Positions 815-47,457 of a stretch of DNA of 64,000 nt are shown here, piece by piece. Numbering within the stretch: position 1 is the first letter of the stretch; every line of letters starts with the position of its first letter. The stretch is from positions 1,600,001 to 1,664,000 of the forward strand of contig CAWCDG010000004.1 in assembly GCA_963794325.1 (NCBI GenBank), written 5' to 3'. Below the pieces are notes generated by a model. It saw only the letters and a list, made by a program, of their open reading frames with translations, was not told the origin of the DNA and did not search any database. This stretch comes from an uncultured delta proteobacterium. GTDB taxonomy: Bacteria; Desulfobacterota; Binatia; Binatales; Binataceae. The position numbers and the translations under genes were made by a program.

Positions 815-818
815 GACG

Positions 819-30614: not shown

Positions 30615-30677
30615 ATTTAAGCACTTGTCGATTCATAGATGGGTCGGCGGGGTGCAACAGGAAAAGGAAGTATTCAA

Positions 30678-30758: not shown

Positions 30759-30834
30759 CTCCAAACTCAGGTCCATCTGAAAACGATGAACCCCGCGGAC
30801 AAAGTCGCGGCGACGCAATTTCAGGAAGACAGTT

Positions 30835-30987
30835 ATGAACCTAATATTACTAGTCCTACTCGTGGTTCTCTTGATCGGCGCATTGCCCGCCTGGCCGTAT
30901 AGTGCCGGCTGGGGCTACTATCCTAGCAGCGCGCTCGGGACGATCCTGGTCATAGTTCTCGTTCTCGCATTGCTTGGACGAGTCTAA
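30835..30987 (+). CDS. DUF3309 family small membrane protein, 50 aa, not in the ORF track
   Basis: MNLILLVLLVVLLIGALPAWPYSAGWGYYPSSALGTILVIVLVLALLGRV*. Confidence 0.9.
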   Translation: MNLILLVLLVVLLIGALPAWPYSAGWGYYPSSALGTILVIVLVLALLGRV

Positions 30988-31027
30988 GACTTCCGCTTCG
31001 TAGGCGATGGCCGTCAGTAGAAGCGAC

Positions 31028-31255
31028 CTACTGACGGTTCATCACCATTCCTGCGCCAATCAGGACAACGCCAAGAACCATCGCTCCCACGCTCACGATC
31101 GGCGGGATGAAGTGTGGTTCCTCAGTCTTGGCCTGAACTTTCAAGTCACCGAATTTCACCACGTCCTGGGTTCGCTCCGTATTGAAGGAGGGCATCGCAA
31201 AGGCGATGAGCCCTAGAAGCGCGACTATCGCGCCGAACATCATGATGCTTTTCAT
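31028..31255 (-). CDS. DUF3185-like small two-TM protein
   Basis: MKSIMMFGAIVALLG...VVKFGDLKVQAKTEE...IPPIVSVGAMVLG; GGAGG RBS. Confidence 0.75.
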   Translation of the reverse strand: MKSIMMFGAIVALLGLIAFAMPSFNTERTQDVVKFGDLKVQAKTEEPHFIPPIVSVGAMVLGVVLIGAGMVMNRQ

Positions 31256-31306
31256 TTCGGTTGTCCTCCAGAAAGTGTTACGTAGGTTCCGCAGGTCCGG
31301 CGAATA

Positions 31307-31322
31307 AGCAAGCCAAGTGCCA
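31307..31322 (-). promoter_or_regulatory. Sigma-54 promoter of the DUF3185-like gene
   Basis: Minus strand TGGCAC-TTGGC-TTGCT (consensus match), 51 bp upstream of the ATG. Confidence 0.72.
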
Positions 31323-31497
31323 CAGAATCTGCCCGCGTCACGATGCTTTGCACGGACCGTAGGCATCCCCGCCGGGAATCATGTAATTGTTGCTCTGTCG
31401 CTATGATTTTCCTGACGTTTGACGTGATGCGCCGGGCTCATTGCGAACCGGCATCGCGCGGACTAAAAGCAGTGAGCCTGATGCGGCTGGAGCCAGC

Positions 31498-33318
31498 ATG
31501 CCTGCGAACCGACTAAGAAGGAGTCTTTCCACCACAATCGTGGTTCCCGCGATCCTGATGGCTCTGGCAGTCATTGCGCTGATGTGGGAATTGCGCCGCC
31601 AGATGATCGAAACCGATTGGGTCGAGCATACTGATCGCGTAATGCTGCTGGTCGAAACCGCGAAAGCCGAATTTTTGTCCGCGCAGGAGGCGCTCAGGAA
31701 TTTCCTTCTTGCTTCAGACCAGACCCACCGCGGTCCGATCGAGAAAAATTGGAACGATAGCCAGGATATGGTCCGGCAACTTGCCGCGCTCGTTTCCGAC
31801 AATCCGACCGAGGAACAACGGGTGAAACTCCTCAACGGCCTCGAGAATCAATGGCTTGAAGCCGTCCGTGACGTGGATCAGAACTCGACCGATGCGGCGA
31901 AAGGTGATCTGTTCCAGCGCGCGACCACGATCGGGACCGAAGTGTTGAATGAGTTCGACGCGTTTTCGGCGGCTGAACAGGAGTTACGGACCGCGCGAGA
32001 CGCGCAACGAGATTTGCATTATCGCGTCGCAATCTGGGGCGTCCCCATCTCTGCGTTGATCCTGGTCATCGGACTCACGGTGGTGGCGTCGCGAGAGATC
32101 CGAAGCGCCAGCAATACGTTCGCCGGAGCGTTGAAAGAAGCGGAGGCGGCGAATCAGGCGAAGACGAATTTTCTCGCGGTCGTCTCCCATGAGTTGCGCA
32201 ACCCGCTGAATTCGATCCTGCTCTGGTGCAACGCGCTGCTCACCAGCGGAACGCTCGAAGGAAAAGTCGATCAAGGAGTCAGAGCAATCTCCCGCGCCGC
32301 CAAGGGCCAGGCGCAGCTCATCGAGGATCTGTTGGACATCTCACGGATCGAAAGCGGCCAGATGCGATTCGACGTGCAACCTGTCAATCCGGCAGAGATT
32401 GTGCGCGCGGCGGTGGACAGCATGAGTCCCGCCGCCGACGCGAAGTCGATTACGATGCAAGTCGTTCTGGATCCGCGCGCGGACGCCGTCATGGGCGATC
32501 CACAACGGCTGCAGCAGGCGGTGTGGAATATCCTGTCCAACGCGATCAAGTTCACGCCCAAGGGCGGCAAGGTGCAGGTGCGCCTCGAGCGAATCAATTC
32601 GCACCTCGAGATTGTTGTCGCCGACAACGGCCGGGGGATCGACCATCGCGAACTCGAAAATGTTTTCGATCGCTTTTGGCAGGCCGCCGGCCCGCACAGC
32701 ACCGAGCGCGGGATGGGCCTGGGTCTTTCCATCGTCAGGCACATTGTAAATCTTCACGGCGGCACGGTCAGTGCTCATAGCGACGGCCCTGGAAAGGGAA
32801 GCGTTTTCATAATTCGCCTTCCGCTTCCGGTTACCACCGCCGGATTGACGAGTCCTGGGCGCCGGCATCCGACGGCGACGCTCACAGGCCAGAGCGCCCG
32901 AGTCCTGCGTCTCGAAGGCATTTCCGCGCTGGTCGTCGATGACGGCCCGGAGACTCGCGAAGCGTTGCGGTCGTTGCTGACGACGCTCGGCGCCAGCGTC
33001 AAGACAGCGGACACTGCGGAGAGTGCAATCGCCTGTCTGACGGAGTCGAAGCCCGACGTGCTCATCTCCGACCTCGGGATGCCCGGTCGCGACGGCTACT
33101 CGCTGATCAAGGAGATTCGGGCGCGTGAACAAGAGACAGGAGCAGTTGAGCATCTGCCGGCCGTTGCACTGACCGCATACGGACGCGTTGAGGATAGGGT
33201 CGAAGTTCTCTCGTCAGGCTTCGACAGCCATGTCGTGAAGCCCGCCGATCCCGCGGAGCTGGCAGCTGTGATCAAAAGATTGGTTAAAGCGCGCAGCTCA
33301 GGCAGCGACGATACCTAA
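31498..33318 (+). CDS. Membrane hybrid histidine kinase (CHASE3-HisKA-HATPase-REC)
   Basis: WVEHTDRV, LVSDNP (CHASE3); FLAVVSHELRNPL; NILSNAIKFT; DNGRGI; GMGLGL; REC LISDLGMP. Confidence 0.92.
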   Translation: MPANRLRRSLSTTIVVPAILMALAVIALMWELRRQMIETDWVEHTDRVMLLVETAKAEFLSAQEALRNFLLASDQTHRGPIEKNWNDSQDMVRQLAALVSDNPTEEQRVKLLNGLENQWLEAVRDVDQNSTDAAKGDLFQRATTIGTEVLNEFDAFSAAEQELRTARDAQRDLHYRVAIWGVPISALILVIGLTVVASREIRSASNTFAGALKEAEAANQAKTNFLAVVSHELRNPLNSILLWCNALLTSGTLEGKVDQGVRAISRAAKGQAQLIEDLLDISRIESGQMRFDVQPVNPAEIVRAAVDSMSPAADAKSITMQVVLDPRADAVMGDPQRLQQAVWNILSNAIKFTPKGGKVQVRLERINSHLEIVVADNGRGIDHRELENVFDRFWQAAGPHSTERGMGLGLSIVRHIVNLHGGTVSAHSDGPGKGSVFIIRLPLPVTTAGLTSPGRRHPTATLTGQSARVLRLEGISALVVDDGPETREALRSLLTTLGASVKTADTAESAIACLTESKPDVLISDLGMPGRDGYSLIKEIRAREQETGAVEHLPAVALTAYGRVEDRVEVLSSGFDSHVVKPADPAELAAVIKRLVKARSSGSDDT

Positions 33319-33345
33319 GCAAGATAGTTAGCTAGCAGCTTTTCG

Positions 33346-33759
33346 TTACTGAACAGGTTCGGGTCTTTCCCGGTGGATCAATCCGACGTGACGCGCGAGC
33401 AACTGCCAGTTTCCGCCGCGCTTCGTCCATACGTTCATGTAGCTGACAAACAGTTTGAACTCGGTGGTATCTGCTATCAGCTGAGAGATCTCGCTGCCGG
33501 TGGTGACGACCAAATTGTCGAACACCGTGATGCGGACCGGCTTGCGTTCATAGATGCGCAGCTTGAGCCGTCCGTTTTTGATCATTTCAAGCAGGATTTG
33601 TTTTCCCGCGATCAGATTCGCGGTGCTGTTGACGACCAGGTCGTCGGCCCACAGCGTCTGCAGCGCTGACGCGTCGGCAGTTAGCATCGCCCTCGCTTCC
33701 CGCTGTTCCAATGCTTCGATCTCGCTTCGTTCCGCGATGATTGATTCTTTCGTATTCAT
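33346..33759 (-). CDS. NTF2-like / DUF4440 protein
   Basis: EIEALEQREARAM...DASALQTLWADD...YMNVWTKRGGNWQLLARH. Confidence 0.8.
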   Translation of the reverse strand: MNTKESIIAERSEIEALEQREARAMLTADASALQTLWADDLVVNSTANLIAGKQILLEMIKNGRLKLRIYERKPVRITVFDNLVVTTGSEISQLIADTTEFKLFVSYMNVWTKRGGNWQLLARHVGLIHRERPEPVQ

Positions 33760-34142
33760 GGCGTTGGCCCTCGCCTGCAATAATGACCTACGGACGTGAG
33801 CAACCGATCAACATCCACCGGTTTAATAATGATTTCGTTGGCGTCTACGTCGGCGCGATCGCTCAAAGCGGTAACGACGATTACCGGGATGTGTGCCAGT
33901 CGTGGGTTCTTGATTTGTTCCGAGCGGAAATGCCAGCCGTCCATCACCGGCATCCACAAATCGAGGATGATCAAATCGGGCGCCGATGCCTGATCCAGGT
34001 AGTCGAGAGCCTCTCTGCCATTGCCGGCAGGAACTGCCTGATAGCCCTTCATCTGCAAAAGGGCGACCATCGCGTCGCGCGCGTCTTCGTCGTCTTCGAC
34101 GACGAGGATTTTGGGTTCCTCTCGTTCTTCGTCGTCGTGCAT
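33756..34142 (-). CDS. Single-domain response regulator
   Basis: ILVVEDD, PDLIILDLWMPVMDG, VVTA, IKPVD. Confidence 0.9.
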   Translation of the reverse strand: MHDDEEREEPKILVVEDDEDARDAMVALLQMKGYQAVPAGNGREALDYLDQASAPDLIILDLWMPVMDGWHFRSEQIKNPRLAHIPVIVVTALSDRADVDANEIIIKPVDVDRLLTSVGHYCRRGPTP

Positions 34143-34330
34143 CGAATCTAATTCTACAAGATACAGGACTCGGGCCAATACTCACTGGATATTTTTCACT
34201 GCGCGAAGGTCAATATTCACCGACTCCGCCAGCGGGAGGGGCTGATTCTCCACGGTAAACCTTTCTCAGTTACCGATTGACCAGAGGGTCGCGAGAAAAG
34301 AAAACTTCGAGTTTGCTATCCTTTTGCTTT

Positions 34331-34346
34331 TGGCCTGCATCTTGCT
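34331..34346 (+). promoter_or_regulatory. Putative sigma-54 promoter of the MEDS kinase
   Basis: TGGCCT-GCATC-TTGCT, about 110 bp upstream of ATG 34456. Confidence 0.55.
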
Positions 34347-34455
34347 GCCTGTTCGAGGGGAACCTTTGTCTTCAGTTATAGGTCGAGATGCGCCAAGAGT
34401 TTGACCACGACTCCCCCGCTGCCGATCCCTTGAGGCTGACGCAGGAGAATCGCCG

Positions 34456-36657
34456 ATGAGCGCGGCGCGGTTTGAGTCGGGCTCCAGTGCGGCCTCATTC
34501 GCGTCGCCGGCTTCATGGACGGACGTCAATCCACATTCGCATCTGGTTCAGTTTTACGAAAGTGACGGATTTCTTATCGACGCATTGGCCCGCTGGTTCG
34601 CCGACGGCCTCAACGGCGGCGATAGTTGCGTATTCGTCGGCACCGAATCGCATCGCATCAGCCTTGAAAAAGAACTTGCGGATCGAGGCTTCGATCTCGA
34701 TCGCACAAGCGGGCGCTTCGTCTGCGTCGATGCGTCACAAGTGCTTTCGACTTTCATAGTCGATGAGTGGCCGAACGGGGATTTGTTCGCTCGCGCGATC
34801 GAAGGTGTTCTGGGCCGCGTGTCTAAATCACGCGAGCTTCGTGTATTCGGCGAGATGGTGACGCTGCTCTGGGCCGACGGGAGACGGCAAGCGGCGGTCC
34901 GCCTCGAAGAGATGTGGAACGCCTTCATGAAGACGCACGCGCTCTCATTGTGCTGCGCGTATCCTCTTCACAGTTTCGGCTCCGATGCGGATGCGTCGTT
35001 GTTTCTAAAAGTCTGCGCGCAGCATACTCCGGTCCTGCCCGCCGAGAGTTACACCGCGCTGACCACGGAGGCTGAACGTCTTCGCGCGATAAGTCTGCTG
35101 CAACACAAAGCGAGTGTCCTTGAAACCGAGAAAGCCGGACGCAAGGAAGCCGAGCAATCGCTTCACCTGCGTCAAAAAGAGCTTTCGGATATCATCGAGA
35201 ACGCGCTCGAAGGAATCCATCAGGTTGGTCCGGAGGGAAAAATTCTGTGGGCTAATCCGGCGCAGCTCAAACTGCTCGGCTATGCGGCCAACGAATACAT
35301 CGGCCATGACCTCGCCGAATTCTACGTTGACCGCAAACGGTTCGATGAGTTCTGGAAGCGGCTCAGGCGCGGCGAGATCATTTACGACTTTGCGGCGGCG
35401 CTGCGATGCAAAGACGAATCGATCAAGGAAGTTCTCATCCATTCGAGCGGGCTGTGGGAAGACGGCAAGTTCCTGTACACCCGATGCTTCATTCGGGACG
35501 TGACGGAAGGCGTCGAACTGGAGCGCGAACTCAAAATAAGGCTGGCGGAACTCGCTCAGGCCGATCAGCGCAAGAACGAATTTCTCGCGATGCTCGGCCA
35601 CGAGCTTCGCAACCCGCTGTCCGCAGTGCTGGACGCTATCGCGACGGCGCAGCTCGACCAGACTCGCCGCGAACGCGCTCTGACCATCGCACGCCGGCAG
35701 ACCGATCAGCTCGCGAGGCTGGTCGATGACCTGCTCGACGTCGGACGAATTACGCAGGGCAGAATCGTCCTCAAGAAGGAAGCGATCAAGGTCGCCAGCA
35801 TCCTCAAGCAGGCGGTCGAAGAAGCCCAGTGTCTGGTCGAACCCGGTCAGCATCAGTTGTCCGTTAGGATCTCGTCGGGCGCCGACGAAGCTGTGATCGA
35901 GGCGGACCCGGCGCGCATGCGTCAGGTGATCGCCAATCTTATACACAACGCGGCGAAGTTCACTCATGCGGGCGGGCGCATCGACGTGCTGGCTGAGCGC
36001 GCCGACAATGAGATCGTCCTGCGGGTGCGCGATTCCGGCATCGGCATCGCGCCGGACCTGCTGCCGCGGGTATTTGATCTCTTCACGCAGGCCGAGCGTC
36101 CGCTTGACCGATCGCACGGCGGCTTGGGCATCGGCCTGACCCTCGTCCAGCGGCTGGTCGAGATGCACGGTGGCCGCGTCGAGGCGTATAGCGCGGGCCC
36201 CGGGATGGGCAGCGAGTTCGAAGTCCGCATCCCCGCCGCTTCTAATTCTCGTCCGCAGGCGACGGCGACCGTAAACCAAGGCGAGGATCACGGGCATCTG
36301 CGAATCGTGATCGTCGAAGATAATTTCGACGCCGCCGAAGCGCTGAAGATGTTGCTCGAGCTGTTCGGACACCAGACCATCGTGGTTGAGAACGGCTTGG
36401 CTGCGATCGAAGTGGTCCGTCACGGCGCGTTTGACATGGCGCTGGTGGATATAGGATTGCCGGGCATCGACGGTTACGAAGTGGCGCGCCGGATCAGAGC
36501 AATCCCAAACGCAAAGACCATGACGCTGATAGCGCTGACCGGCTACGGCCAGGAAACCGACAAACAGCGCGCCCTCTCCGCCGGCTTCGACGAGCATCTG
36601 ACCAAGCCAGTAAAAATCGAACGCCTGCAAGCCGTCCTGAACCGCCCCCGCTATTAA
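34456..36657 (+). CDS. Cytoplasmic hybrid histidine kinase (MEDS-PAS-HisKA-HATPase-REC)
   Basis: HLVQFYESD, RVFGEMVTLLW, LCCAYP (MEDS); PAS ILWANPAQLKLLGY; LAMLGHELRNPL; REC LVDIGLPGIDG. Confidence 0.92.
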   Translation: MSAARFESGSSAASFASPASWTDVNPHSHLVQFYESDGFLIDALARWFADGLNGGDSCVFVGTESHRISLEKELADRGFDLDRTSGRFVCVDASQVLSTFIVDEWPNGDLFARAIEGVLGRVSKSRELRVFGEMVTLLWADGRRQAAVRLEEMWNAFMKTHALSLCCAYPLHSFGSDADASLFLKVCAQHTPVLPAESYTALTTEAERLRAISLLQHKASVLETEKAGRKEAEQSLHLRQKELSDIIENALEGIHQVGPEGKILWANPAQLKLLGYAANEYIGHDLAEFYVDRKRFDEFWKRLRRGEIIYDFAAALRCKDESIKEVLIHSSGLWEDGKFLYTRCFIRDVTEGVELERELKIRLAELAQADQRKNEFLAMLGHELRNPLSAVLDAIATAQLDQTRRERALTIARRQTDQLARLVDDLLDVGRITQGRIVLKKEAIKVASILKQAVEEAQCLVEPGQHQLSVRISSGADEAVIEADPARMRQVIANLIHNAAKFTHAGGRIDVLAERADNEIVLRVRDSGIGIAPDLLPRVFDLFTQAERPLDRSHGGLGIGLTLVQRLVEMHGGRVEAYSAGPGMGSEFEVRIPAASNSRPQATATVNQGEDHGHLRIVIVEDNFDAAEALKMLLELFGHQTIVVENGLAAIEVVRHGAFDMALVDIGLPGIDGYEVARRIRAIPNAKTMTLIALTGYGQETDKQRALSAGFDEHLTKPVKIERLQAVLNRPRY

Positions 36658-36660
36658 CCT

Positions 36661-38511
36661 CTAGACATTCCGCGACCGCTTTAGCGAATACATCCGCATG
36701 GTGCCGTAGTTCTTGGCGGCGGGAACCTGTCCAACATACTCGCACGTGAATTTTGCATTGGGAGTTGTTGCCAAAGCCGCCGCGAACGCTTCGGTCGCAT
36801 ACACCGAACCTTCCGGGGTTATCGGCTCGATTCGGGCTGCCCGGCAAACGTGGGCTCCGGTGAAGCATATGCGCTTGAGGACGGGATCGCGCAGTCGATA
36901 CACCGGGCCAAGGTGAGTACCCAGCCGGAGCGCCAGGTCGGGCAATCCGACGCGCTTGAAATCGAATGCCGCCATCGCTTCCTGCAACTCAATTGCAACG
37001 CTCGCCGCAGTTTCAACGTCGGCTATGGTAACCGACAGGCCGTCGCCCCAGGTGTTACGGTACAAGATTTTACGCCCGTGCCGGCCAAGAACGCGCGCGA
37101 ACATGCCGATCACTTCGCGCGTGAAAATCGGCATCTGCGGCTCGCTAAGTCTGCTGAACCACTTGATGTCGCCGAAGAGCATCGCACGAATTGTGCGATC
37201 GCCGGGCTTGCGCACCATTTGACGTGGCGCAGGGCTACTCGCCCTGGCAGCCTTGCCAACCGGAGTCGGCCGAATGACTTCGCTCATAAGTCCGAGCTTT
37301 CGCCAGCGGTATACATCGGCGGCGGTGCCGATGAGGCCGCGATGCTCGCGCGCCGGCATTCCGTCCCACACCACGATTTGACGGACCTTGCTATCAAGAG
37401 AACGCGCGTGCAGCGTTGCCAATCCCATCGCCATCTCGCTGGCGTAAGCGAACAGACCTTCTTCACTGAAGTGTTGGTCGGTGGTGGCGTAGGTGACGCT
37501 TTTGGCTGCCGAGTAGCATGAGTCAAAGCGCGGCAGCCACGACTTACCGGCGCGCGCCACTGAGACTCGCTTGAACTCCTCGAGGCCGAACGGCATCGTG
37601 ACGTTCAATTCGGCGCCTTTGCGCAGCAGTTCCTCCGCAAACAGAATGTCAGCGCCCGCGGCCAGCGAACCATAGCCGAAACCCACGTCGTGCCTGCGCA
37701 ACGCAGCCGCAATCTGATCGCGCACACTGGACTCGCTCGCTTGCGGAAATCGCGGACCGGGCAGATGGCCGGCGTAGTAGATTACCGACGGCACCGAGAT
37801 CGCTTCGAGCACTTCGGGCGCGATTCCGCGTGCCGCGCAGACCAGTTTGAGCTGCCGTCGCGTCGTCGCAATCGACGAAAAATCGCGGCCGGTGGCGAGC
37901 GCGGCGGCGCGCAAAGCGCTCCCTGCGCTGCCAAGGTCGCCGATGATCAGCGCCGCCTCGGCCTCTGTGGCGCGGGCGAAGTATTCGTCGGTGCTTCCGC
38001 CGGCATGGCCGCCGGCAAAGATCTTCAGCACTTCGCGAGCGAGCGCCTGCGCGCTTCGTAAATCACCGCCAAGAAGCTTGAGGGTCGCCGCGTTGATTCC
38101 GGGATAGTATGCGCCCGTGCGCCGGAAGATATCGTTGTAGCGGCCCGCGGCGATGGCGAGCAGCCGCTTCCGCTTCGGCCCGATTTCCTGAAGAGCCTGG
38201 TCCTTGGCTATGCGCGCATCGAGCGCGGCGACATCGATAGTGAAAGCATCGGCCGGCCGATCGGCGATCAAATCGCCGAGCTTGAACCGGTCGTAGCGAG
38301 TGCGAGCCTGCCGGGTCGCCCCGGTCCTCGCGAGCGCAAGTACAGCGTTGTACCGGAGAACGGAGTCATCCGGATATTCTTCAAGCGCGCGATCCGCGAG
38401 GTCGAACGCCTGAAGCAATTCCCCGCGCGCATTAGCGTCATGGATTTCGGAGATCCATGCGCCAACGGATTTCGAAGGCACGGACACTTTCGAGCTGCTC
38501 TCGTCTGGCAT
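36661..38511 (-). CDS. TPR (TPR-S/TRAF-binding-like) - SLOG-like - class III nucleotide cyclase fusion
   Basis: Helical N-terminus (VLALARTGA, YYPGINAATL, YFARATEAEAAL, STTRRQL-like SIATTRRQL); SLOG-like YYAGH...GYGSLAAGADILFAE...VTMPF...VWDG...GTAD; cyclase MLFGDIKWFSRL, NTWGDG, LRLGTHLGPV, RAARIEP. Confidence 0.8.
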   Translation of the reverse strand: MPDESSSKVSVPSKSVGAWISEIHDANARGELLQAFDLADRALEEYPDDSVLRYNAVLALARTGATRQARTRYDRFKLGDLIADRPADAFTIDVAALDARIAKDQALQEIGPKRKRLLAIAAGRYNDIFRRTGAYYPGINAATLKLLGGDLRSAQALAREVLKIFAGGHAGGSTDEYFARATEAEAALIIGDLGSAGSALRAAALATGRDFSSIATTRRQLKLVCAARGIAPEVLEAISVPSVIYYAGHLPGPRFPQASESSVRDQIAAALRRHDVGFGYGSLAAGADILFAEELLRKGAELNVTMPFGLEEFKRVSVARAGKSWLPRFDSCYSAAKSVTYATTDQHFSEEGLFAYASEMAMGLATLHARSLDSKVRQIVVWDGMPAREHRGLIGTAADVYRWRKLGLMSEVIRPTPVGKAARASSPAPRQMVRKPGDRTIRAMLFGDIKWFSRLSEPQMPIFTREVIGMFARVLGRHGRKILYRNTWGDGLSVTIADVETAASVAIELQEAMAAFDFKRVGLPDLALRLGTHLGPVYRLRDPVLKRICFTGAHVCRAARIEPITPEGSVYATEAFAAALATTPNAKFTCEYVGQVPAAKNYGTMRMYSLKRSRNV

Positions 38512-38584
38512 GATGAGTAACCTTCGAACAAGCAGGTACCGACTTTCGGCACGAAAATCTTATCGAGTGATGGGCGAATCTGGA

Positions 38585-40527
38585 TCACTGTGCGCGGAGC
38601 CGGTCCAGCGAGAGCTTCGCCATCTGATGTCCCTGGGCAGCCGCCAACTCGTACCACTTCAGAGCTTCGGTGCGATCGATCGGCACTCCCCAGCCGCTCT
38701 CGTACAGCTTTCCGAGATTATATTCCGCGGAAGCATTTCCTTGCGCCGCTGCTCCTTGATACAGCGGGATTGCTGCTGAGTAGTCCTGACTGACGCCCTG
38801 GCCCTGACAGTACATGGTGGCGAGTCTGTTTTGCGCGGCCGCCAGTCCTTGCGCCGCTGCTTGACGATACCAGTTTGCTGCTTCGGCATAGTCCGGCCCG
38901 CCTCCGACCTGGCCGGCTTCGTACATGTAGCCGAGATTGTTTTCAGCTTCGGCATTTCCTTGCGCCGCCGCCTTACGATACCAGGTTGCCGCCTGGTCAA
39001 AGTCGGGACCGGTTCCGACTTGGCCTTTTTCATACATATAACCGAGATTCGCTTCGGCTTGGGCGTCACCCTGCGCCGCCGCCTCTCCGAACCATTTGAG
39101 TGCGGTAGTATGATCGCCCAAGCGCTGGGCGGCGTCGCCAAACGCAATTAGCTGAGGCGCGGTATGGGCCCGAGCCAAATCATTGGAACCGCCGGTCCCA
39201 ATCGATTCAACCATTGTACTTGCGAAGCGGTCTGCCATCGACTGCACGTCGGCGGTAGATCCTTTAAAAATTTTCCCGGAGAGCCTTCTGCGTTGTGCGA
39301 CGTCGTATAGATAAACGGTTAGATCCACCGTCGAGCCATTCGACGCTGACCATTCCCTTGACCAGAAAATCGGCCGCGATTGAACTCCAGGGGCTGAAAT
39401 CGAACTGCCCCAACTCATAAGCCGGACTGCTGCGCATCCTGATGGTAGGACTGTGCACCGATCAGATCGAAGGAACCCAGGTTAAGCAGAGAACGCCGCA
39501 CCACCTCAACAAAGTTCTCGCTCACCCGGCCATCTTCATCGCCGCCACCATTTTTCAATGGCGAAATCGCGATACGGGGGAGGTGCGACACGGACGCCGA
39601 TTCGCGAGCAGGAGCTGGCGGCTCTATCGTCGCGAGTCTCTCAGGAGCAGCAGGCGCTATCGTCGCGAGACTCTTCGGTATCGCAGCAGCCTCGGATTTG
39701 GCTTGCGCGACCGCCTCTGCCGCTTTGCGCTTGCGCTCCTTCTCCGTCTGTGCGGCCTTCTGCGCAGCCTGTGCCTGCTCAGCGACCGCGCGTTTTCGAG
39801 CCGTATCCTCGGCCAGCGCGCGTTCTTTCTGGGCCTGCGCAGCGTTCTCCTCTCGTTGCTGCGCGGCCGCGCTTGCTCTCTCAGCCGCCGCAGTCTGCTC
39901 GGCGACACGTTTGCGGAGCAAATCCTGCTGCGCAACGTAATATCGCGCGCCGAAGAAGGCAGCGGTTCCGACGAGTGCAATCGCCAAAGCCGCAATCGAG
40001 GGAGCGATCCACTTCGGACGCGGTCGGGCGCGGGCGATTATCTCTGGCGGTGTTGCAGCACTAAACTCATCGCGAGCAGGCGGCGACGGTCGCGGCGTCT
40101 CCGAAGCGACACGATCGCTCTCGATACGTTCGAGCCAGAATTTAGCGGAATCCGCAATCCCCTCAAGGTGCCGCTCGAACGGCGGCGTGATCGCGTCGAG
40201 CCAGTGCGGTGTGCCGAGAAAATATTCGAGGTCGCCGGACGGCTTCACATTCTCGACCCGCACCGGAACGACGACGAGGCCCTTGCTGACCGCGCGTTCC
40301 ACTTCGCGGCTTACCTGCGGAGACCCGTTGGCGTGCGACGAAAACAAAAGCAGCATCACGCGTGCGGCGTCAATCGCCTCGACAATCGCGGTGCCCCAGC
40401 TCATGCCGGGACGGATGTCGCGCGGCGCGATCCAGCATCGGATGCCGCGTGATTCGAGCTTCGCGCAGACTCCATCGGCATACGGTTTGTCCCGAGCCGA
40501 ATGGCTTATGAATACGTCGTGAGCCAA
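38585..40527 (-). CDS. TIR - TM - Ala-rich coiled coil - TolB N-terminal-like - Sel1 protein, split by two apparent +1 frameshifts (about 39420 and 39341)
   Basis: ORFs 39415-40527, 39264-39458 and 38585-39418 join to ...QDAQQSG/YELGQFDFSPWSSIAADFLVKGMVSV/NGSTVDLTVYLYDVAQRRRLSGK...; TIR DVFISHS...SREVERA; Sel1 AxxNLGYMYExG. Confidence 0.75.
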
Positions 40528-40769
40528 AGAGCTGGTCTTCTCCCATTCGGCGCTCGAATAGCCGAGAAAGATGTCGTTCCCGTCTTTAACCGTTGGTGTC
40601 TTCTCAAAACTCCAAGGGTAACCGAATGTCTAGACGATTTGACTTAACAATCGCAATAGACTAGCAAGATGGCAATCTTCAATCGTGCTAGCTTCCGTAG
40701 GGCTCGGATCCTAGTGAGGCTGTTGCGGAACCCGCGAGAAAAATTCCGGCCTTACGTTTGGGGGAAGCA

Positions 40770-41228
40770 ATGAACAGAATGGCCGCAATCGTCGCGACAG
40801 CGGCAGTATTGATGTGCTTGTCTTCGTGCGCATTGGTGTTTCACGGAACCAACGAAGATGTAACTGTTACCAGCGATCCTCCCGGTGCTACGGCTACGCT
40901 CAGCACTGGGGAGACGCGCGTGACACCATTCGCGGTGACAGTTCCAAGGAAGCAGAACCTTGAGGTCCACTTCGCTAAACCAGGCTATAATCCGACCGAT
41001 GTTACCGATGAATCGCAGATAGAGGCCGGGTACCTTATAGTTGATATCCTTACCTTCGCATGGCCGTATGACGCAGCTTCCGGCGCTTATTTTTCCCATC
41101 AACAATCTACAATTGAAGCAAAACTAGTCCCCATTGAAACTGGGGCACCTGGCGGGCCGGCGCGCGCAGATTCACAACTGCCGCAAGGAAAAGTATCTAG
41201 CAGCGTTGCGGGCGAAGATACGAACTAG
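40770..41228 (+). CDS. PEGA-domain-like lipoprotein
   Basis: Lipobox LSS-C; VTVTSDPPGA, TP, FAKPGY, YDAASGA. Confidence 0.72.
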   Translation: MNRMAAIVATAAVLMCLSSCALVFHGTNEDVTVTSDPPGATATLSTGETRVTPFAVTVPRKQNLEVHFAKPGYNPTDVTDESQIEAGYLIVDILTFAWPYDAASGAYFSHQQSTIEAKLVPIETGAPGGPARADSQLPQGKVSSSVAGEDTN

Positions 41229-41278
41229 TCGAGAAAAAACCGCAATGAGCACGACGGACTCGTGCGGGGGAATTGCTC

Positions 41279-41962
41279 ATGAGGAATTGCGTGACTGGCC
41301 TAACCGTTAGCACCGCTTCAGCGCTTGTCGCTGCGGTCGCTGGAGCCTTGGCTGCGACAGTGTTCCTTAGCGGATGTGCCTTTACAACCGGGCATGTCAA
41401 TCTCGACTATCAGTCCCAGGTAGCCCCTACGAAATTCGCAGTGGCAAATTCCCCTCACATAAGTGTGGCGGTCACTGACAAGCGCCCCACACAGGTGGTG
41501 GGTCATAAGATCAACGGATACGGAATGAAGACCGCAGAGATCGTATCCGACAGCGATGTTCCTGCAACGGTCAAGAAAGCATTCGACCAGGAGCTGGAAG
41601 CGCGCGGATTCACACCGGGGACGGGCGGCATTCTTGTCGCGGTCAGCCTGAACGATTTCGAGAGTGAATACTCGACTGGCTGGTTTTCGGCGCAAGCCAC
41701 CGCGAATATGGGTATGGACGTGAGCGTTGTGCAGACCGACGGCACAATCACCTTCGAAAAGCATATTACGGGGCATAACGAGGAGTCAGTCATGACCTCG
41801 GGCGAGGGGAACGCGCAGGTAGTCCTCAACGCGGCAATGCGCGATGCTGTTTCCAACGTCTTTGGCGACCCCGCCTTCCTTAACGCTCTAATGGGGCACG
41901 GCCAATCCAGCGATCATAGGTCTGCCTCAGAGAGCTCCATCCATAGTCTCTCAGGAAGCTAG
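41279..41962 (+). CDS. YajG-like lipoprotein
   Basis: Lipobox LSG-C; VAVTDKR, ELEARGF, LNDFESEY. Confidence 0.6.
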   Translation: MRNCVTGLTVSTASALVAAVAGALAATVFLSGCAFTTGHVNLDYQSQVAPTKFAVANSPHISVAVTDKRPTQVVGHKINGYGMKTAEIVSDSDVPATVKKAFDQELEARGFTPGTGGILVAVSLNDFESEYSTGWFSAQATANMGMDVSVVQTDGTITFEKHITGHNEESVMTSGEGNAQVVLNAAMRDAVSNVFGDPAFLNALMGHGQSSDHRSASESSIHSLSGS

Positions 41963-43761
41963 CGAGCCTTCTGGAGCCGCTCCAGACCTTGCTTCGCATC
42001 TGGTTGTCCTTGCGCGGCGGCTTTTTCATACCACCAAAGGGCTATAGCGGTGTCCTCGGCAATACCCCAGCCGTTCTCGTACATAGCACCGATGTTGTTT
42101 TCTGCATCGGCGTTGCCTTGTTGCGCCGATTGGCGGAACCAGTTCACTGCCGCGGAATAGTCTCTGTCTACGCCGAAGCCATTGAGGTACATCAGACCGA
42201 GGTTGTTCTGGGCTGCGGCATTTCCCTGTTCTGCCGCTTTGCGGAACCACTTCACTGCTTGGGAATCGTCTTTCTGTACTCCCCAGCCGTTCGAGTACAT
42301 GACGCCCAAGTTGGCCGCGCCCATTGCGTTGCCCTGTTGCGCCGCTTCGAGGAACCACTTCATTGCGGCGGAATAGTCCCTATCTACGCCGAATCCATTA
42401 AGGTACAAAACGCCTAGATTGACCTCGCCTTTGGCGTTACCCTGTTGCGCTGACTCGCGAAACCACTTCACTGCCTCAGAATTGTCTTTCTGCATGCCCC
42501 AGCCCTCGGAATACATCACGCCGAGGCTAGCTTGGGCCTCGGCGTCACCTGCTGCGGCTGCGTCTTCATAGTCCTTCAGGGCTACACTATAGTTTCGTTC
42601 CTTTAGCGCAGCGCTAGCCGAGGCGACGATAGCGACGTTTTTTTGCCGCGCGGCCTCCTGCTCTTTCTTGCGGGTCTCCGCTTCTGTCTCTTCGCTTACT
42701 GTTGGTTCGCCTTCTGCGCCGGCTTGGACGTGGGTCGACTGCTCATCGTTGCGGGCCTGCGCTTCCGCCGCCTCGCGTGCTTTCGCCTCCGCATCTTTGC
42801 GAGCCTGGACCTCGATTGCTTGTTGACGCTTACGAGCAACTGCATCCGCCTCTTTGCGCTGTTTCGCTTCGGCTTCTTTGCGGAGTCGGGCCTCGGTCTC
42901 CTGTTCGCGCTTGCGAGTTTCAGCTTCGGCCTTTTCCCGCGCTCTCACATCCGCATCATTGAGGCCCTGACTGTTTGCAGTTCCTGGTTCCTTGGCAGTC
43001 GGAGGCTCCTTTTGCGACTCGGTCGCGCGTTTTTGCGGGGCGCGAGCCGTGGCGACGGCCGGCTGGTTGGCTGGTTCTTGCGCCGACTTCTCTAGGGCTT
43101 CGTGGTATTGGAAGCCCAAAAGTACGACAGCAGCGAGCGCGGCCACGGCTAGTACAGCGATCAAGACCTTACGAAGAGTGAACGAGACCGTCGGTGCGGA
43201 AATTACCGCCGCGGGTTCCAGATGAATTACCCTTGGCGAAGAAGGCATCGCACCACCACGGGTCACTCCGGGCGGAACCTGCGACGCAGGCGCTTTAGTA
43301 GATCGTTCGGTTGTTGCCCCGGTCGCCGATGGAGATGCGTTGCCAGAATGGCTCCCCATGCGATCCAGCCAGAACCTCGCGGAGTCGGCAATTTTGTCCA
43401 AGTGCTGTGCGAACGGCGCTGTGATCGCGTCGAGCCAGTGCGGTGTGCCGAGGAAATATTCGAGGTCGCCGGACGGCTTCACGTCCTCGACCCGGACCGG
43501 CATGACGACGACACCCTTGTTCACGGCGCGTTCTACTTCGCGGCTGATCTGCGGAGACCCGTTAGCGTGCGACGAGAACACCAGCAGCATCACGCGCGCG
43601 CCGTCGATCGCTTCGATAATCGCGCTGCCCCAGCTCATGCCGGGGCGGATGTCGCGCGGCGCGATCCAGCATCCGATGCCGCGCGACTCCAGCTTTGCGC
43701 AAATCCGGTCGGCGAAGGGCTTGTCCTTAGCCGCGTGGCTTATGAAGACGTCGTGAGCCAT
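41959..43761 (-). CDS. TIR - TM - charged coiled coil - Sel1 repeat protein
   Basis: TIR DVFISHA...SREVERA...WLDA; TM VLIAVLAVAALAAVVLLGF; E/A/K/R coil; about 5 Sel1 repeats. Confidence 0.9.
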   Translation of the reverse strand: MAHDVFISHAAKDKPFADRICAKLESRGIGCWIAPRDIRPGMSWGSAIIEAIDGARVMLLVFSSHANGSPQISREVERAVNKGVVVMPVRVEDVKPSGDLEYFLGTPHWLDAITAPFAQHLDKIADSARFWLDRMGSHSGNASPSATGATTERSTKAPASQVPPGVTRGGAMPSSPRVIHLEPAAVISAPTVSFTLRKVLIAVLAVAALAAVVLLGFQYHEALEKSAQEPANQPAVATARAPQKRATESQKEPPTAKEPGTANSQGLNDADVRAREKAEAETRKREQETEARLRKEAEAKQRKEADAVARKRQQAIEVQARKDAEAKAREAAEAQARNDEQSTHVQAGAEGEPTVSEETEAETRKKEQEAARQKNVAIVASASAALKERNYSVALKDYEDAAAAGDAEAQASLGVMYSEGWGMQKDNSEAVKWFRESAQQGNAKGEVNLGVLYLNGFGVDRDYSAAMKWFLEAAQQGNAMGAANLGVMYSNGWGVQKDDSQAVKWFRKAAEQGNAAAQNNLGLMYLNGFGVDRDYSAAVNWFRQSAQQGNADAENNIGAMYENGWGIAEDTAIALWWYEKAAAQGQPDAKQGLERLQKAR

Positions 43762-43899
43762 TTCCCCCCTGATTCATGTTGTTTAAATCAGACCGGCGCC
43801 GGAAAACATAGGGCGGCGAATATCGATAGCAGCGCGCGACGAGTCTCGCTCGGAATCACTACCGCACTTGCAGGGAAGCTCTGGTTTAGCGGTACGAAA

Positions 43900-45249
43900 T
43901 CAGCGCCGGGGAATTATGCTCAAAAATTGCTGCAACACCGCGGATTTCTGCTGTTGCTCTTGCAAAGCCTCTTGTTGAGCCTGCTGCTGAGCTTGCTGTT
44001 GTTGCTGGGCTTGCAAGGCTGCTTGTTGCGCCGCCTGTTGTTGCGCCAACTGTTGCTGTCGTTGTTGCTCAAGCGATGCCTGTTGCTGCGCCTGTTCTGC
44101 CCGGGCACGTTCCTGCGCGGCCGCGGCTCCTCGTTCTCTTGCGATTTCGTCCGCTGCTCGCCGGGCTCTAACCTTCGCTTCTTCCGCCCGAGCGCTTGCC
44201 TCCTCGGCCTCTGCCTTCTCTGCTTCGGCTTTCGCCTTCGCTTCTTCCGCGTGTTCCTTGGCTACGAGGTCGGTGCCGATCGAGAAGGATCGGCTTGCGA
44301 GTTCGCGATCGCCTGAGTACAGCGAAAATTTATAAAGCCCGGGCTTTTGCGCTATCGAATCTGAAAGTGGGATGACACCCGCGACTGACGCGTCGCCATC
44401 CGCGGATTTGGTGACCCGGCGAACACCTCCCGCAGCGATCTGGAGTCCTGCGGGATCGTAGATTCGTGCTTCGATTGGCGAGTCAGCCGAAGCGCTGGCA
44501 GCCCATGCCAGGTTTGGGGCCGCGCGCAATTGAGTATCAAGGAACGATCCCTGGTCTTGCGTCAGCGGAACTCCGTCGGCGGATGCCAATTGGAGGCGGA
44601 TCGCCGCATCGAGATGCTGTTCCTTGGCGCCGCGTGAGATCGAGTAGAAATGCCCGGCCAAGAAGCCAACAGCTATCAGGACGCTCAGGGCGCCGGCGAA
44701 CGCAAACATTCGCGTGAGCTTGCCGCTCCAACCCGGCCCCGCGCTCAGCGCCTTCATCCGCTTGTCTGCGATCCTCGCCGCTTTGCGATCGACCTCAGGC
44801 TCGATTCCGTAGGACGTCGCGGCGGGTCTGGCCAAGTTCGCAGAGGTCGCTCGGGTCATGCGTTGGAGTGCCTGCGCGAGCTCCTCAAAATGACTCTCGA
44901 TCCGACCCTCTGAGGCATCCAGCCATTGGCTGCTGCTCACGAAATATTCCAACGAGGCAGACAGCGGGACAGATTCGACGCGGAACGGCAGAACGGGAAT
45001 ATTACGGCTTACGGCTCGCTCCACTTCGCGCGGAACGTGAACCGATTTGTTGGACAGCGCGGAGACGATCACGATCATCGCGTGCGCCTCCGTGATTCCT
45101 TCCATGATCGATCTGGCATAGTCGGCGCCGAGCGGTACGTCGCGAGGCGCTATCCAGCATTGGATGTTGCGAGCCTCCAGATCTTTGCAGATAGCCTCGG
45201 CGCATGGTTTGTCATGCGAGGCGTAGCTGATGAAGACATGTTGGGCCAT
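43900..45249 (-). CDS. TIR - TM - unknown periplasmic domain - Ala/Gln-rich tail protein
   Basis: TIR HVFISYAS...CWIAPRD...PREVERA...QWLDA; TM FAFAGALSVLIAVGFLAG; PGLYKFSLY; QQQ-rich C-terminus. Confidence 0.85.
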   Translation of the reverse strand: MAQHVFISYASHDKPCAEAICKDLEARNIQCWIAPRDVPLGADYARSIMEGITEAHAMIVIVSALSNKSVHVPREVERAVSRNIPVLPFRVESVPLSASLEYFVSSSQWLDASEGRIESHFEELAQALQRMTRATSANLARPAATSYGIEPEVDRKAARIADKRMKALSAGPGWSGKLTRMFAFAGALSVLIAVGFLAGHFYSISRGAKEQHLDAAIRLQLASADGVPLTQDQGSFLDTQLRAAPNLAWAASASADSPIEARIYDPAGLQIAAGGVRRVTKSADGDASVAGVIPLSDSIAQKPGLYKFSLYSGDRELASRSFSIGTDLVAKEHAEEAKAKAEAEKAEAEEASARAEEAKVRARRAADEIARERGAAAAQERARAEQAQQQASLEQQRQQQLAQQQAAQQAALQAQQQQQAQQQAQQEALQEQQQKSAVLQQFLSIIPRR

Positions 45250-45602
45250 GGCGCCGCTGTGACTCCCTTGCCGGCTCGGTTAGGTCAGCGCTGATCGCGA
45301 TCTGAGGAAGCAATTCGACAAAATCGGCACGTCCCCTTTTTCGGCGGTTGCTCGTCCCACTGCAAGTGAACAGGGACGCTGATTCGCCCCCATTGTCCGA
45401 AATTCACCTGAGCATATCGCCCAGCGAAGTTAAGTCAAGGCGTAGCCTACGTAAGAGTTTCGCTAGTGAATTTACAAGACGACAATTTGATATAGAGCCC
45501 CTTAGTCGGGATTTGCAGGGGAAAGCTCTGGCTAGTGGAGGTTCACCGAGCAGGCTGCTTCGTGGATCTTCGAACAGCGATCTCGCTTACAATCCAGGAA
45601 AA

Positions 45603-45960
45603 TGGTGGAGGCGGGGGGAATTGAACCCCCGTCCGAAGGCCTTCCGGCGACGGCCACTACACGCTTAGTCTGCGAATTTTAGCTCGCGTCCGGAACGCCC
45701 ACAGACGGGCTTTTCGTACGCCAGCCGGCTGAAATTTCGGTAAGCCGCCCAGCCGGTGAACTGCGGTTCCCTAGCCCACTAAATGACGCCCCGACCCGCT
45801 GCCATGGGCGAACAGCGGCGGGACGCTAGCGGCCCTTAGGCCGCCAGAGCGTAACCGTTATTGTCTGCGGGTAAATTTCGCAGTCTGCCAGTTTTACGGG
45901 TCGACAGCACCCGGCGTGCGACCATGGCCATGTTGTCTTCGTCGAATCCAGTTCGCCCCC
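45603..45960 (-). ncRNA. ssrA: tmRNA; tag reading frame ADNNGYALAA* at 45868-45836
   Basis: 5' GGGGGCGAACTGGATTCGAC; 3' GGTTCAATTCCCCCCGCCTCCACCA; tag ending YALAA; divergent from smpB. Confidence 0.95.
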
Positions 45961-46099: not shown

Positions 46100-46598
46100 A
46101 TGGTTCGCGATTCTCAAACGCGCAACGGTAAACCGTCCGCCGACGGATTCGACCTGGTGGTCGATAACCGCAAGGCCCGCCACGACTTCTTCATCGAGGA
46201 AACGCTCGAGGCCGGCCTCGCGCTCACCGGCACCGAGGTCAAATCGCTGCGGGCGCATCGCGCAAATCTTCGCGACAGTTACGCGCGCATCAAGAACGGC
46301 GAGGCGTTCCTCGAGAGCGTCCATATCGGCGCCTACGCTCCCGCCGGCCAGTTCAGCCACAAGGAAACTCGCCCGCGAAAACTCCTGATGCATCGCCGCG
46401 AGATCGATAAGCTCTGGGGCCGCGTGCGCGAGAAGGGCTACTCGATCGTCCCACTTGAAAATTTATTTCAAAAACGGACGCGCCAAGGTCGAACTCGGCC
46501 TCGCCAAGGGCAAGCACTCGTACGACAAGCGCGACGCGCTCGCGCGCAGAGCGTCGGATCGGGAAATCGAGCGCGCCCTGAAAGGACGCAACCGCTAG
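46100..46598 (+). CDS. smpB: SsrA-binding protein SmpB (apparent +1 frameshift near 46456)
   Basis: [33 protein letters not shown]; removing one T restores [26 protein letters not shown]...RNR*. Confidence 0.92.
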
Positions 46599-47457
46599 AG
46601 AACGTTCTGGCTCTTCGCGAGTTTCCGTAATTCCGCAGCCAGGCTCTGAAAGCTGGTGACGCTCGCCGAGAATTCCCCTGGCGTCGTGCCGATGTTTCCG
46701 AGAACGCTCGCAACGGTATCGTGGAAGCGCGCTGGCTTGATCGCGAATCCTCGTGACTCGGCCATCGCACCTTTCTCATTGAGAAAAAATTTGCGGTTCA
46801 GCGCGTACAGCACGAGCGTCATGAAGCCGGCCGCCCGAAACAGGCATCCGGCGACGTACATCACGTCGGCGCGCGCGGCCGGCTTCGCCGCGATCATAAT
46901 TTCGAATTCCGCATCGAACAGATGCTTCGTCACAAGCCGCGGTCCGAAATTTTTCCGGATACTCGCTGACTCCAGACTTGAGCTGAGCGATCACGCCAGC
47001 CGGATCGAAAAGCGGACGGCAGACGTGAATTTCGCCGGCGTAAATCTGTATGTGAAATCCCAGCGGATGTCCGAGCTGGTGGATGCTGCGCGGGCGACCG
47101 GCGACGCAGTCCTCGATAGCCGCGCGCATCGCGCCAATTTCACGGTAGAGAAAATCAACGTGATTGCCGCGAATCTGGAGCCATCCGCCGCCGTTCACTC
47201 CAGGCCCCCACTCGCCAAACCCAGTCACCAGGTTGTCGCTATGCCGATCGTCCAGCTCCTTCGCTGCCGCTCCCAGAGCCGCCGTCGAGAAGGGATGGGT
47301 GCAGTCGTAATAGATTCCGAGATCGATATCCGACCGCTCGTCGGCAGTTCCACGCGCGCGTGATCCGCCGAGCACGATCGCCAGGATGCCGTCGATCTTC
47401 GACACGCGTGCGACGACTCGACTCGAGTATTTCTTCGATTTCGCGTTGCTCGGCCAT
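46595..47457 (-). CDS. Nucleotidyltransferase-domain (DUF4037-like) protein with two apparent +1 frameshifts
   Basis: [18 protein letters not shown]...LGGSRARG...SDIDLGIYY...[13 protein letters not shown].../[10 protein letters not shown]...[13 protein letters not shown]. Confidence 0.75.

Follow-up and report, generated by a model that had tools for sequence, protein, structure and literature searches.

A TolB N-terminal domain inside a putative membrane-anchored TIR protein of an uncultured Binataceae bacterium

Gene architecture

We analyzed a 64,000-nucleotide stretch of DNA from an uncultured delta proteobacterium of the family Binataceae (class Binatia; GenBank assembly GCA_963794325.1, contig CAWCDG010000004.1, positions 1,600,001–1,664,000 of the forward strand), called the window below, and focused on a minus-strand gene at window positions 40527–38585. 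In order, this gene encodes a TIR domain, one transmembrane (TM) helix, a stalk of ~85 residues, the N-terminal domain (D1) of TolB, and five Sel1 repeats, and we refer to it as the TIR-TolB gene. It starts with a TTG codon at 40527, giving the N terminus M-AHDVFISH as in all homologues, and its stop codon lies at 38585–38587. The coding sequence runs through three reading frames (A, B, and C), and its three in-frame segments are all free of stop codons. Its parts are as follows.

40527–39418, minus strand: frame A, 370 amino acids
39458–39267, minus strand: frame B, 64 amino acids, ~26 of which are part of the TIR-TolB gene
39418–38588, minus strand: frame C, 277 amino acids
40108–40527, minus strand: TIR domain, residues 1–140 of frame A, probably cytoplasmic (Pfam TIR_2)
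39940–40008, minus strand: single TM helix, residues 174–196 (hydrophobic stretch in the translation; start of the predicted helix 174–281)
39685–39939, minus strand: helical stalk rich in Ala, Glu, Lys, and Gln, residues 197–281, probably periplasmic (AlphaFold2)
39583–39684, minus strand: Pro/Ala-rich linker with a short peptide repeat, residues 282–315 (translation; low-confidence and nonhelical in the model)
39191–39582, minus strand: TolB D1, complete, across frames A, B, and C (tblastn and D1 profile)
39417–39421, minus strand: first +1 frame break, A to B, one surplus base; frame A stops at the TGA at 39415–39417
39339–39342, minus strand: second +1 frame break, B to C, one surplus base
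38588–39148, minus strand: five Sel1 repeats (Pfam Sel1 in frame C)

Residues 5–113 of frame A matched Pfam TIR_2 (PF13676) at 81.5 bits (E 9.1e-23; cutoff 28), and the solved TIR structure nearest by sequence was 3h16 (E 4.5e-4). Residue E75 of the TIR domain, at what we take to be the position of the catalytic Glu in TIR NADases, was invariant in all 18 aligned family members. An AlphaFold2 model computed from an 18-member family alignment predicted residues 174–281 as one unbroken helix, with a predicted local distance difference test score (pLDDT) above 90 at about residues 180–270. This helix comprises the TM segment and the ~85-residue stalk, which would measure ~13 nm if straight; the helical Ala/Glu/Lys/Gln stalk described in the first-pass annotation of the window, which was made from the sequence alone, was thereby supported. 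Model confidence was low for the TIR part and for residues 286–370 (mean pLDDT 60). Frame C matched Pfam Sel1 (PF08238) above its cutoff in five stretches (134.2 bits, E 8.6e-40). With this layout, the TIR domain would face the cytoplasm and the parts beyond the TM helix would face the periplasm. The linker directly before D1 (39583–39684, minus strand) contains two similar Pro/Ala units of 10–12 residues in tandem, a repeat that may be the scar of an insertion.

Identity of the TolB domain

The same annotation had proposed that a TolB N-terminal-like domain emerges once the three frames are joined, and this domain proved to be real. As a reference we used the genome’s own TolB (444 amino acids, locus L001), which consists of TolB_N (72.6 bits) and PD40 (132.4 bits) and is encoded beside a TolA/TonB-like gene. 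A tblastn search with this protein against window positions 38000–41000 returned three colinear pieces in three frames (E 3e-17 and 5e-8) that cover TolB residues 6–102, 92–128, and 120–167 at 35–53% identity. With the frames taken separately, Pfam TolB_N (PF04052) gave 16.7 bits (E 0.0084) for frame B alone, below the cutoff of 22.4, and had no match at E ≤ 1 in frame A or frame C.

We then scored the region with a D1 profile built from 49 TolB D1s (the genome’s own, 28 from congeners, and 20 from genomes of other families in the class Binatia; a locus whose genome is marked as unpublished was excluded). Singly, the pieces scored 29.8, 24.7, and 41.2 bits at adjoining profile positions 2–52, 51–79, and 78–125. 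The read-through, with an X at each break, scored 117.8 bits over positions 2–125 of 129 (E 5.6e-34 among 39,165 open reading frames, ORFs). The only other matches to the profile in this genome were TolB itself (198.7 bits) and one protein composed of a cyclase domain, a TM helix, a TolB_N-like domain, and TPR repeats (29.2 bits). No residue is lost relative to the TolB alignment at either frame break. By sequence comparison, we regard the hidden segment as a confirmed true and complete TolB N-terminal domain. The peptide strings quoted in the first-pass annotation are all present in the DNA; frame B reads ...SSPAYELGQ..., and the quoted SGYELGQ is a join of frames A and B.

The fused D1 is homologous to TolB over the whole domain and groups with TolBs of its own genus. 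It differs from TolB in its surroundings: it is embedded in a membrane protein and lacks the signal peptide, the TolA-box motif, the PD40 propeller, and the tol operon. The captured copy begins at the first strand of D1. At the position of the TolA box, all 10 genus TolBs printed carry the motif P-I-(V/T)-(I/M)-x-I-x-G-P-G, and in the fused copy this motif is replaced by an unrelated Pro/Ala/Ser linker; the domain is internal, with no signal peptide. No Pfam match to PD40 or another beta-propeller was found in any of the three frames, and Sel1 repeats follow instead. The genome’s own tolA and tolB lie together at 1.82 Mb of contig C4, and the TIR-TolB gene lies 180 kb away at 1.64 Mb of the same contig, among TIR genes. 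According to excerpts of bioRxiv 10.1101/790931, mature TolB is bound by TolA at its twelve N-terminal residues and by Pal at the propeller.

This anatomy bears on an earlier suggestion that the receptor docks onto Tol-Pal, with D1 joining it to TolA, Pal, or TolB so that envelope damage is reported. The derivation of D1 from TolB agrees with such a sensor, as would a stalk of ~85 residues that, as modeled, could reach the peptidoglycan zone; Sel1 repeats are moreover listed as peptidoglycan-associating modules in the part of PMC7159879 available to us. Docking by the known Tol-Pal routes is nevertheless unlikely, because the TolA-box motif has given way to an unrelated linker and there is no propeller for Pal, and the locus is both 180 kb from tolA-tolB and absent from most congeners. 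We consider a docking sensor improbable.

Origin of the domain and selection on it

The fused D1 is 48.1–54.3% identical to all 29 genus TolB D1s (50.4% to the genome’s own) and 26.2–38.8% identical to all 20 TolBs of other families. A maximum-likelihood tree grouped it with the genus TolBs at 100/100, which bears out a derivation from the tolB of its own lineage. Its branch length is 1.21 against a median of 0.098, ~12 times longer than the TolB branches, and because the branch is so long, its exact position within the genus TolBs is unsure.

Between the fused D1 and the genome’s own tolB, the proportion of nonsynonymous differences (pN) was 0.336 and the proportion of synonymous differences (pS) was 0.655, for a ratio of nonsynonymous to synonymous divergence (dN/dS) of ~0.29. 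Its pS against any genus tolB tested was 0.64–0.74, a range that the lower G+C content at third codon positions (GC3) of the fused copy may inflate, and the own tolB differed from those same genes by 0.35–0.56. The divergence of the fused copy thus exceeds that of the own tolB, which argues that the duplicate is not recent. GC3 was 0.56–0.73 in the D1 segments and 0.79 in tolB. The fused D1 has kept 21 of the 28 columns conserved at ≥90% in all 49 TolBs and 58 of the 96 columns conserved in the genus. On these comparisons, the fused D1 is an old duplicate of a Binatus-lineage tolB, fast-evolving yet coding; it would have evolved about 10 times faster than TolB while staying under purifying selection as coding sequence.

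Scaffold, stalk, and the TIR-TM family

With frame A as query, 8000 candidates from the clustered proteins were scored, and 1779 of them proved to be relatives at E ≤ 1e-5, some with the source names Candidatus Binatus and Binataceae. The best 120 of the 1779 are TIR-TM proteins with C-terminal Sel1, FGE-sulfatase, beta-lactamase-like, VHL-beta, SH3, TonB_C, PEGA, propeller, or lectin modules, and the precomputed Pfam annotation of these 120 contains no TolB_N. Two further members of the family are encoded in the window, both intact.

41959–43761, minus strand: paralogue 2, TIR, TM helix, charged stalk, and five Sel1 repeats, with no TolB domain
43900–45249, minus strand: paralogue 3, TIR, TM helix, periplasmic part, and Gln/Ala/Glu tail

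In paralogue 3, the periplasmic region of ~130 residues is followed by a long tail rich first in Ala/Glu/Lys and then in Gln.

The TIR-TM-stalk-Sel1 proteins of Binataceae (paralogue 2, P0004, P0005, P0009, and P0026) share with the TIR-TolB protein a TIR domain at 55–75% identity, the same TM helix, a charged stalk, and Sel1 repeats; unlike it, none has the D1 insert. Four of them (P0005, P0009, P0026, and paralogue 2) align as TIR, TM helix, charged stalk, and Sel1 with a gap precisely at D1. The gap argues that D1 is an insert in a preexisting TIR-TM-stalk-Sel1 architecture.

The stalk had also been likened to TolA, and here the comparison failed as a claim of descent. It has no similarity to the genome’s own TolA (best E 0.28), neither it nor the TIR-TolB gene matches NCBIfam tolA_full (TIGR02794) at E ≤ 0.01, and homologous charged stalks occur in P0005, P0009, P0026, and paralogue 2, all of which lack a TolB domain. 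The stalk of paralogue 2 has a subthreshold match to tolA_full (22.8 bits against a cutoff of 59.45). We rejected a TolA derivation on the absent similarity to the own TolA and to tolA_full. What the stalk would have in common with TolA domain II is shape rather than homology, a long predicted Ala/Glu/Lys-rich helix after an N-terminal TM helix. It differs in that the middle of the genome’s own TolA is rich in Pro, Thr, and Glu and in that the TIR-TolB gene has no TolA or TonB C-terminal domain.

A second group of relatives combines a more distant D1-type domain with TPR repeats. Behind a TIR-TM segment, L021 and L019 have TolB_N matches of 16.8 and 22.0 bits followed by TPR repeats, and a D1-like plus TPR module also occurs in P0045, P0125, and P0129. 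In this genome, the cyclase protein found with the D1 profile (L002; C4:1857104–1859179; locus positions 403–2478, minus strand) is a 691-residue adenylate/guanylate cyclase-TM-TolB_N-like-TPR protein with TolB_N at 22.2–26.2 bits. These sensors, both the TIR-TM-D1-like-TPR proteins (L021, L019, L012, P0125, and P0129) and the cyclase-TM-D1-like-TPR protein, have the same order of parts as the TIR-TolB protein: output domain, TM helix, D1-type domain, and alpha-solenoid repeats. Their D1-like domains are distant from TolB (23–25% identity, 16.8–31 bits) and were not detected by BLASTP with the fused D1. The TIR-TolB gene differs in having an authentic, separately acquired TolB copy, Sel1 repeats, and a long preceding stalk. 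The recurrence of a TolB_N-like domain with TPR repeats behind TIR or cyclase domains suggests that a D1-type domain beside an alpha-solenoid is a favored periplasmic arrangement.

Searches for a second copy of the fusion

We looked for the TIR-TolB fusion in 60 relatives plus all 46 congeners and in protein collections of 5.8 billion clustered proteins and 1.84 billion representatives. Eight of the 46 congeners have TIR-TM homologues, none of which matches frame A past residue 313, and 24 genomes of other families had no match to frame A at all. Frame A residues 296–370 found only the window’s own protein among 106 candidates from the clustered proteins, and frame C residues 24–110 found none among 280 candidates from the longer clustered proteins. 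In the best 150 of 25,166 matches from the 1.84 billion representatives, only the window’s own protein extended to residue 370. The D1 profile and BLASTP were run on 233 retrieved proteins; the profile found four with a D1-like domain (31.0, 27.9, 16.1, and 9.0 bits), which belong to the distant group with a TolB_N-like domain and TPR repeats and none of which BLASTP detected from the fused D1. Scans of metagenome and genome contigs with the C-terminal half of D1 returned two ordinary tolB loci (one, L097, 51.5% identical over D1) and two chance matches.

The intact TIR-TolB_N-Sel1 orthologues that the first-pass annotation had envisaged were therefore not seen in congeners, protein collections, or contig scans, all of them searches limited by word or pattern seeding. 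By sequence, the fusion is a singleton in all collections searched. In the literature, the listings and excerpts consulted likewise describe neither a TIR-TolB fusion nor membrane-anchored TIR proteins that carry periplasmic modules.

Frame breaks and reliability of the assembly

Each of the two frame breaks is a +1 shift caused by a single surplus base, and we asked how often such breaks occur elsewhere in the assembly, which has 10 contigs and a marker completeness of only 85%. In 400 kb of the closed congener genome G007, we chose 357 ORFs of at least 250 amino acids from 442 by their codon-position GC content. Against these we counted 166 nonoverlapping conserved genes in the assembly under study (≥60% identity, ≥70% coverage). 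A frame change was present in 16 of the 166, for a total of 18 events over 232 kb (0.078 per kb; 10 were +1 and 8 were −1), three or four of which lie near the N terminus and are ambiguous. In one of the 166 genes, 40 codons lie between two +1 shifts. With a looser filter, 29 of 272 genes were frame-broken. Only 7 kb from the TIR-TolB gene, smpB (46100–46630, plus strand) is frame-broken near 46455–46516: residues 1–139 of the G007 SmpB match one frame and residues 123–169 match another at 98% identity, a break that is, from the sequence, most likely an assembly indel. Because 16 of 166 conserved genes and the nearby smpB are frame-broken, frameshifts in this assembly are not trustworthy. With about 1 in 10 conserved genes affected, "hidden" or "broken" genes in it are not readable as pseudogenes without the reads. 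In a congener of few contigs and low completeness (G014), a copy of the gene next downstream of TIR-TolB (described below; C6:2488009–2488876, L102) lies in three pieces with internal stops, which suggests a similar assembly error there.

We also considered programmed +1 frameshifting and, judging from the letters of the DNA, found it unlikely. At the first break, a Leu codon stands directly before TGA, a loose resemblance to the prfB site; the second shows neither a stop nor a slippery feature, and frame B goes on for another 38 codons.

Errors in the assembly are the most likely source of the two breaks, with very recent mutations as the alternative, and of these we favor the artefact, with some confidence, over a real and very recent inactivation. 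If the frameshifts were real, the locus would be a young pseudogene, a once-functional fusion that is now dead and decaying. A distance of 80 bases separates the two +1 breaks, and frame A terminates immediately; no search turned up a second copy of the fusion; D1 has a long branch and lowered GC3; and the gene cluster sits in a variable interval, from a histidine kinase gene to ssrA/smpB, that has other content in the congener G013. Each of these fits decay. What speaks against it is that both breaks are clean insertions of one base that cost no residue, that ~640 codons show no other lesion, that dN/dS is ~0.29, and that the assembly itself breaks 16 of 166 conserved genes, one of them in a similar pattern of two +1 shifts 40 codons apart, as well as smpB 7 kb away. 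We regard a young pseudogene as possible, though doubtful.

An error-prone assembly could also have mis-joined a TolB-like segment to a TIR gene, and no independent contig covers 39166–39683. No RNA dataset was listed as containing the stretch, and contigs of four soil-metagenome runs from one study cover small parts of it. Those short contigs do match both flanks with no mismatch. The stalk and Sel1 flanks are in frame and align with family members on both sides, and the segment is only ~50% identical in protein to the genome’s own TolB, so it is not a misplaced tolB copy. Such a chimera is very improbable.

Partner gene and genomic context

The TIR-TolB gene is the last of three TIR-TM genes in tandem (45249–43900, 43761–41959, and 40527–38585), and 73 bases downstream of it lies a gene that we call the partner. 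The partner and the other features of the region are as follows.

36661–38511, minus strand: partner gene, 616 amino acids, with TPR-S, a middle region, and a class III cyclase-like domain (Pfam and PDB profiles)
40758–41228, plus strand: PEGA-like, lipoprotein-like gene between TIR genes (17.1 bits, below cutoff)
41273–41962, plus strand: Lipoprotein_16/YajG-like gene between TIR genes (61 bits)
45603–45960, minus strand: tmRNA gene ssrA beside the TIR cluster (Rfam 189.7 bits)

The partner matches Pfam TPR-S (45.6 bits; cutoff 27.6) and Guanylate_cyc (28.2 bits; cutoff 21.9), and a PDB profile search matched only its cyclase and TPR parts. Its middle region of ~290 residues has no Pfam match at E ≤ 10; there, the motif G-x-x-A-A-G-x-D-I-L-F-x-E is, we presume, reminiscent of SLOG-type nucleotide-binding domains. 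The partner is the only TPR-S match in the genome.

Among the 47 genus genomes, the partner occurs in 7, all of which have TIR-TM genes, and TIR-TM homologues occur in 9. The two TIR-TM genomes lacking the partner are G020, with a match of only 36 residues, and G027, whose TIR genes are 52% identical and have other C-terminal parts; both genes are missing from G007, G013, G016, and G003. At most 2 kb separate the partner from a TIR-TM gene in G009, G014, G029 (two loci), G034, and G070; three TIR genes precede it in G009 and two in G034. G063 has the two genes on different small contigs. Across 401 genomes of the phylum, we found three distant partner homologues from other families (37–39% identity) with an extra N-terminal RyR domain: one (L108) is directly followed by a TIR-TM-TPR gene; one (L107) is preceded by a TM-TPR ORF that is cut off at the start of the locus; and the third lies at a contig end. 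The pairing of TIR-TM and partner genes across families argues for a functional link between them. At locus L010 of G014, a 388-residue ORF that by eye looks like a patatin-like phospholipase (plus strand, offset 149) lies directly upstream of a TIR-TM-Sel1 gene.

The TIR cluster lies between the histidine kinase gene and ssrA/smpB, an interval that is variable among congeners; in G013 it is occupied by 16.7 kb of other genes, with TIR and partner genes both absent. The PEGA-like and Lipoprotein_16/YajG-like genes were not found in the TIR clusters of four congeners. Signs of an island were absent, with no ssrA 3′-end repeat of at least 12 bases in 28000–45500 and no GC anomaly, and no integrase was seen beside ssrA and the TIR cluster. 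A promoter and terminator scan gave counts equal to those in shuffled sequence.

A candidate periplasm-facing receptor

TIR genes paired with a TPR-bearing gene recall Thoeris. In excerpts of bioRxiv 10.64898/2025.12.03.692087, the TPR domain of the TIR-system effector ThsI is discussed as a likely reader of cyclic ADP-ribose, and an earlier prediction of a TPR role in TIR signaling is cited there (Burroughs and Aravind 2020, J Bacteriol). The likeness to Thoeris, for example to type VIII with its TPR-bearing effector as that source presents it, is that a TIR gene is paired with a TPR-type presumed reader joined to an enzymatic domain. Here, by contrast, the TIR protein is predicted to sit in the membrane and to have a periplasmic head, one partner goes with as many as three TIR genes, and the partner ends in a class III cyclase-like domain. 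A TIR gene conserved beside a gene with presumed reader and effector domains was found in five congeners (six loci) and in one distant family. By analogy, the TIR-TM gene and the TPR-S/cyclase gene suggest a periplasm-sensing, Thoeris-like pair. In PADLOC and NCBIfam, the TIR gene gave only weak TIR-domain matches (PADLOC, E 1e-5 to 1e-8; NCBIfam, 15–18 bits against cutoffs of 220–600) and the partner gene gave no match.

We think it reasonably probable that the TIR-TolB gene encodes a periplasm-facing TIR receptor whose head was remodeled by capture of a TolB D1 and which works with its TPR-S/cyclase neighbor. The protein would belong to a large modular family of single-pass inner-membrane proteins, in Binataceae and other soil bacteria, with a common plan of a cytoplasmic N-terminal TIR, one TM helix, and a periplasmic module that varies between members. 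An ancestor built as TIR, TM helix, helical stalk, and Sel1 would have taken in a duplicate of its own lineage’s tolB D1 between stalk and Sel1, rebuilding from authentic TolB material the recurrent periplasmic module of TolB_N-like domain and TPR repeats. D1 and the Sel1 solenoid may form a periplasmic head that binds a ligand or partner, spaced from the inner membrane by the putatively rigid ~13-nm stalk. Occupancy of the head could alter the oligomeric state of the cytoplasmic TIR domains, and an NAD-derived TIR product could be read by the TPR-S/cyclase protein encoded downstream, in the manner of a Thoeris-like sensor and reader that faces the envelope.

Several observations weigh against this receptor model. 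The lower GC3 and very long branch of D1 fit relaxed constraint as well as they fit a new function. The gene is broken twice within 80 bases, and double errors are expected in about 1 of 100 genes of such length (2 of 166 observed). The congener gene neighborhoods come from related genomes and are not independent evidence, PADLOC and NCBIfam give no system-level Thoeris match, and no collection searched holds an intact fusion, so conservation of the whole architecture is not demonstrable.

The first-pass annotation had raised the captured Tol fragment as possible bait. Its capture stands; its use as bait is unsupported rather than disproved, with no second fusion found in searches that were themselves limited. 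As an integrated decoy, D1 would mimic TolB so that Tol-Pal-exploiting bacteriocins or phage proteins bind it and trigger the TIR domain. D1 does duplicate a protein of a pathway exploited by colicins and filamentous phages, according to excerpts of bioRxiv 10.1101/790931. It also evolves fast, is part of a TIR protein encoded next to a probable signal reader, and belongs to a family that freely exchanges periplasmic modules. Bait for propeller-binding agents is nevertheless excluded by anatomy, because the propeller is absent, and the propeller is presumably also the site that colicin TolB boxes bind. We know of no attacker that binds TolB D1, the searches found no second such fusion, and sister proteins fill the same position with ordinary binding modules. 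According to the excerpts cited, TolB binds TolA through the TolA box and Pal through the beta-propeller; the fused copy has neither, so a decoy, like a docking sensor, is possible only through a D1 surface other than the known ones. We judge a decoy unlikely. Integrated domains of nucleotide-binding leucine-rich repeat receptors (NLRs) in plants offer a likeness that is conceptual only, in that a duplicate of a host protein domain resides within a TIR-carrying receptor; they differ from the present case in that the known TolB interaction parts are left out here and there is no NB-ARC or STAND module.

The locus represents an unusual and clean domain capture: a domain of the housekeeping envelope protein TolB was duplicated, lost the parts known to mediate interactions, and became incorporated in a receptor-like TIR protein, where it is under selection and fast-evolving. 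It points to a little-studied family, thousands of TIR-TM proteins of soil bacteria with freely swapped periplasmic modules, which in Binataceae have a conserved TPR-S/cyclase gene as companion. Should signaling by these pairs resemble that of TIR systems elsewhere, what such TIR systems sense would be the envelope or the exterior and not the cytoplasm, and the question of how bacterial TIRs perceive a threat would become testable in a new setting. Were the decoy reading true, the protein would be an outward-looking, decoy-based bacterial immune receptor that raises the alarm through a TIR-made nucleotide to its TPR-S/cyclase neighbor, sharing its logic with the integrated domains of plant NLRs and its topology with an animal Toll-like receptor. 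The range of modules in the family also includes two TIR-TM proteins (P0037 and P0119) whose C-terminal domain is of the TonB/TolA type (TonB_2, 60.6 bits; TonB_C, 32.9 bits) and which, judged by their domains, appear to be in effect TonB-like proteins carrying a cytoplasmic TIR.

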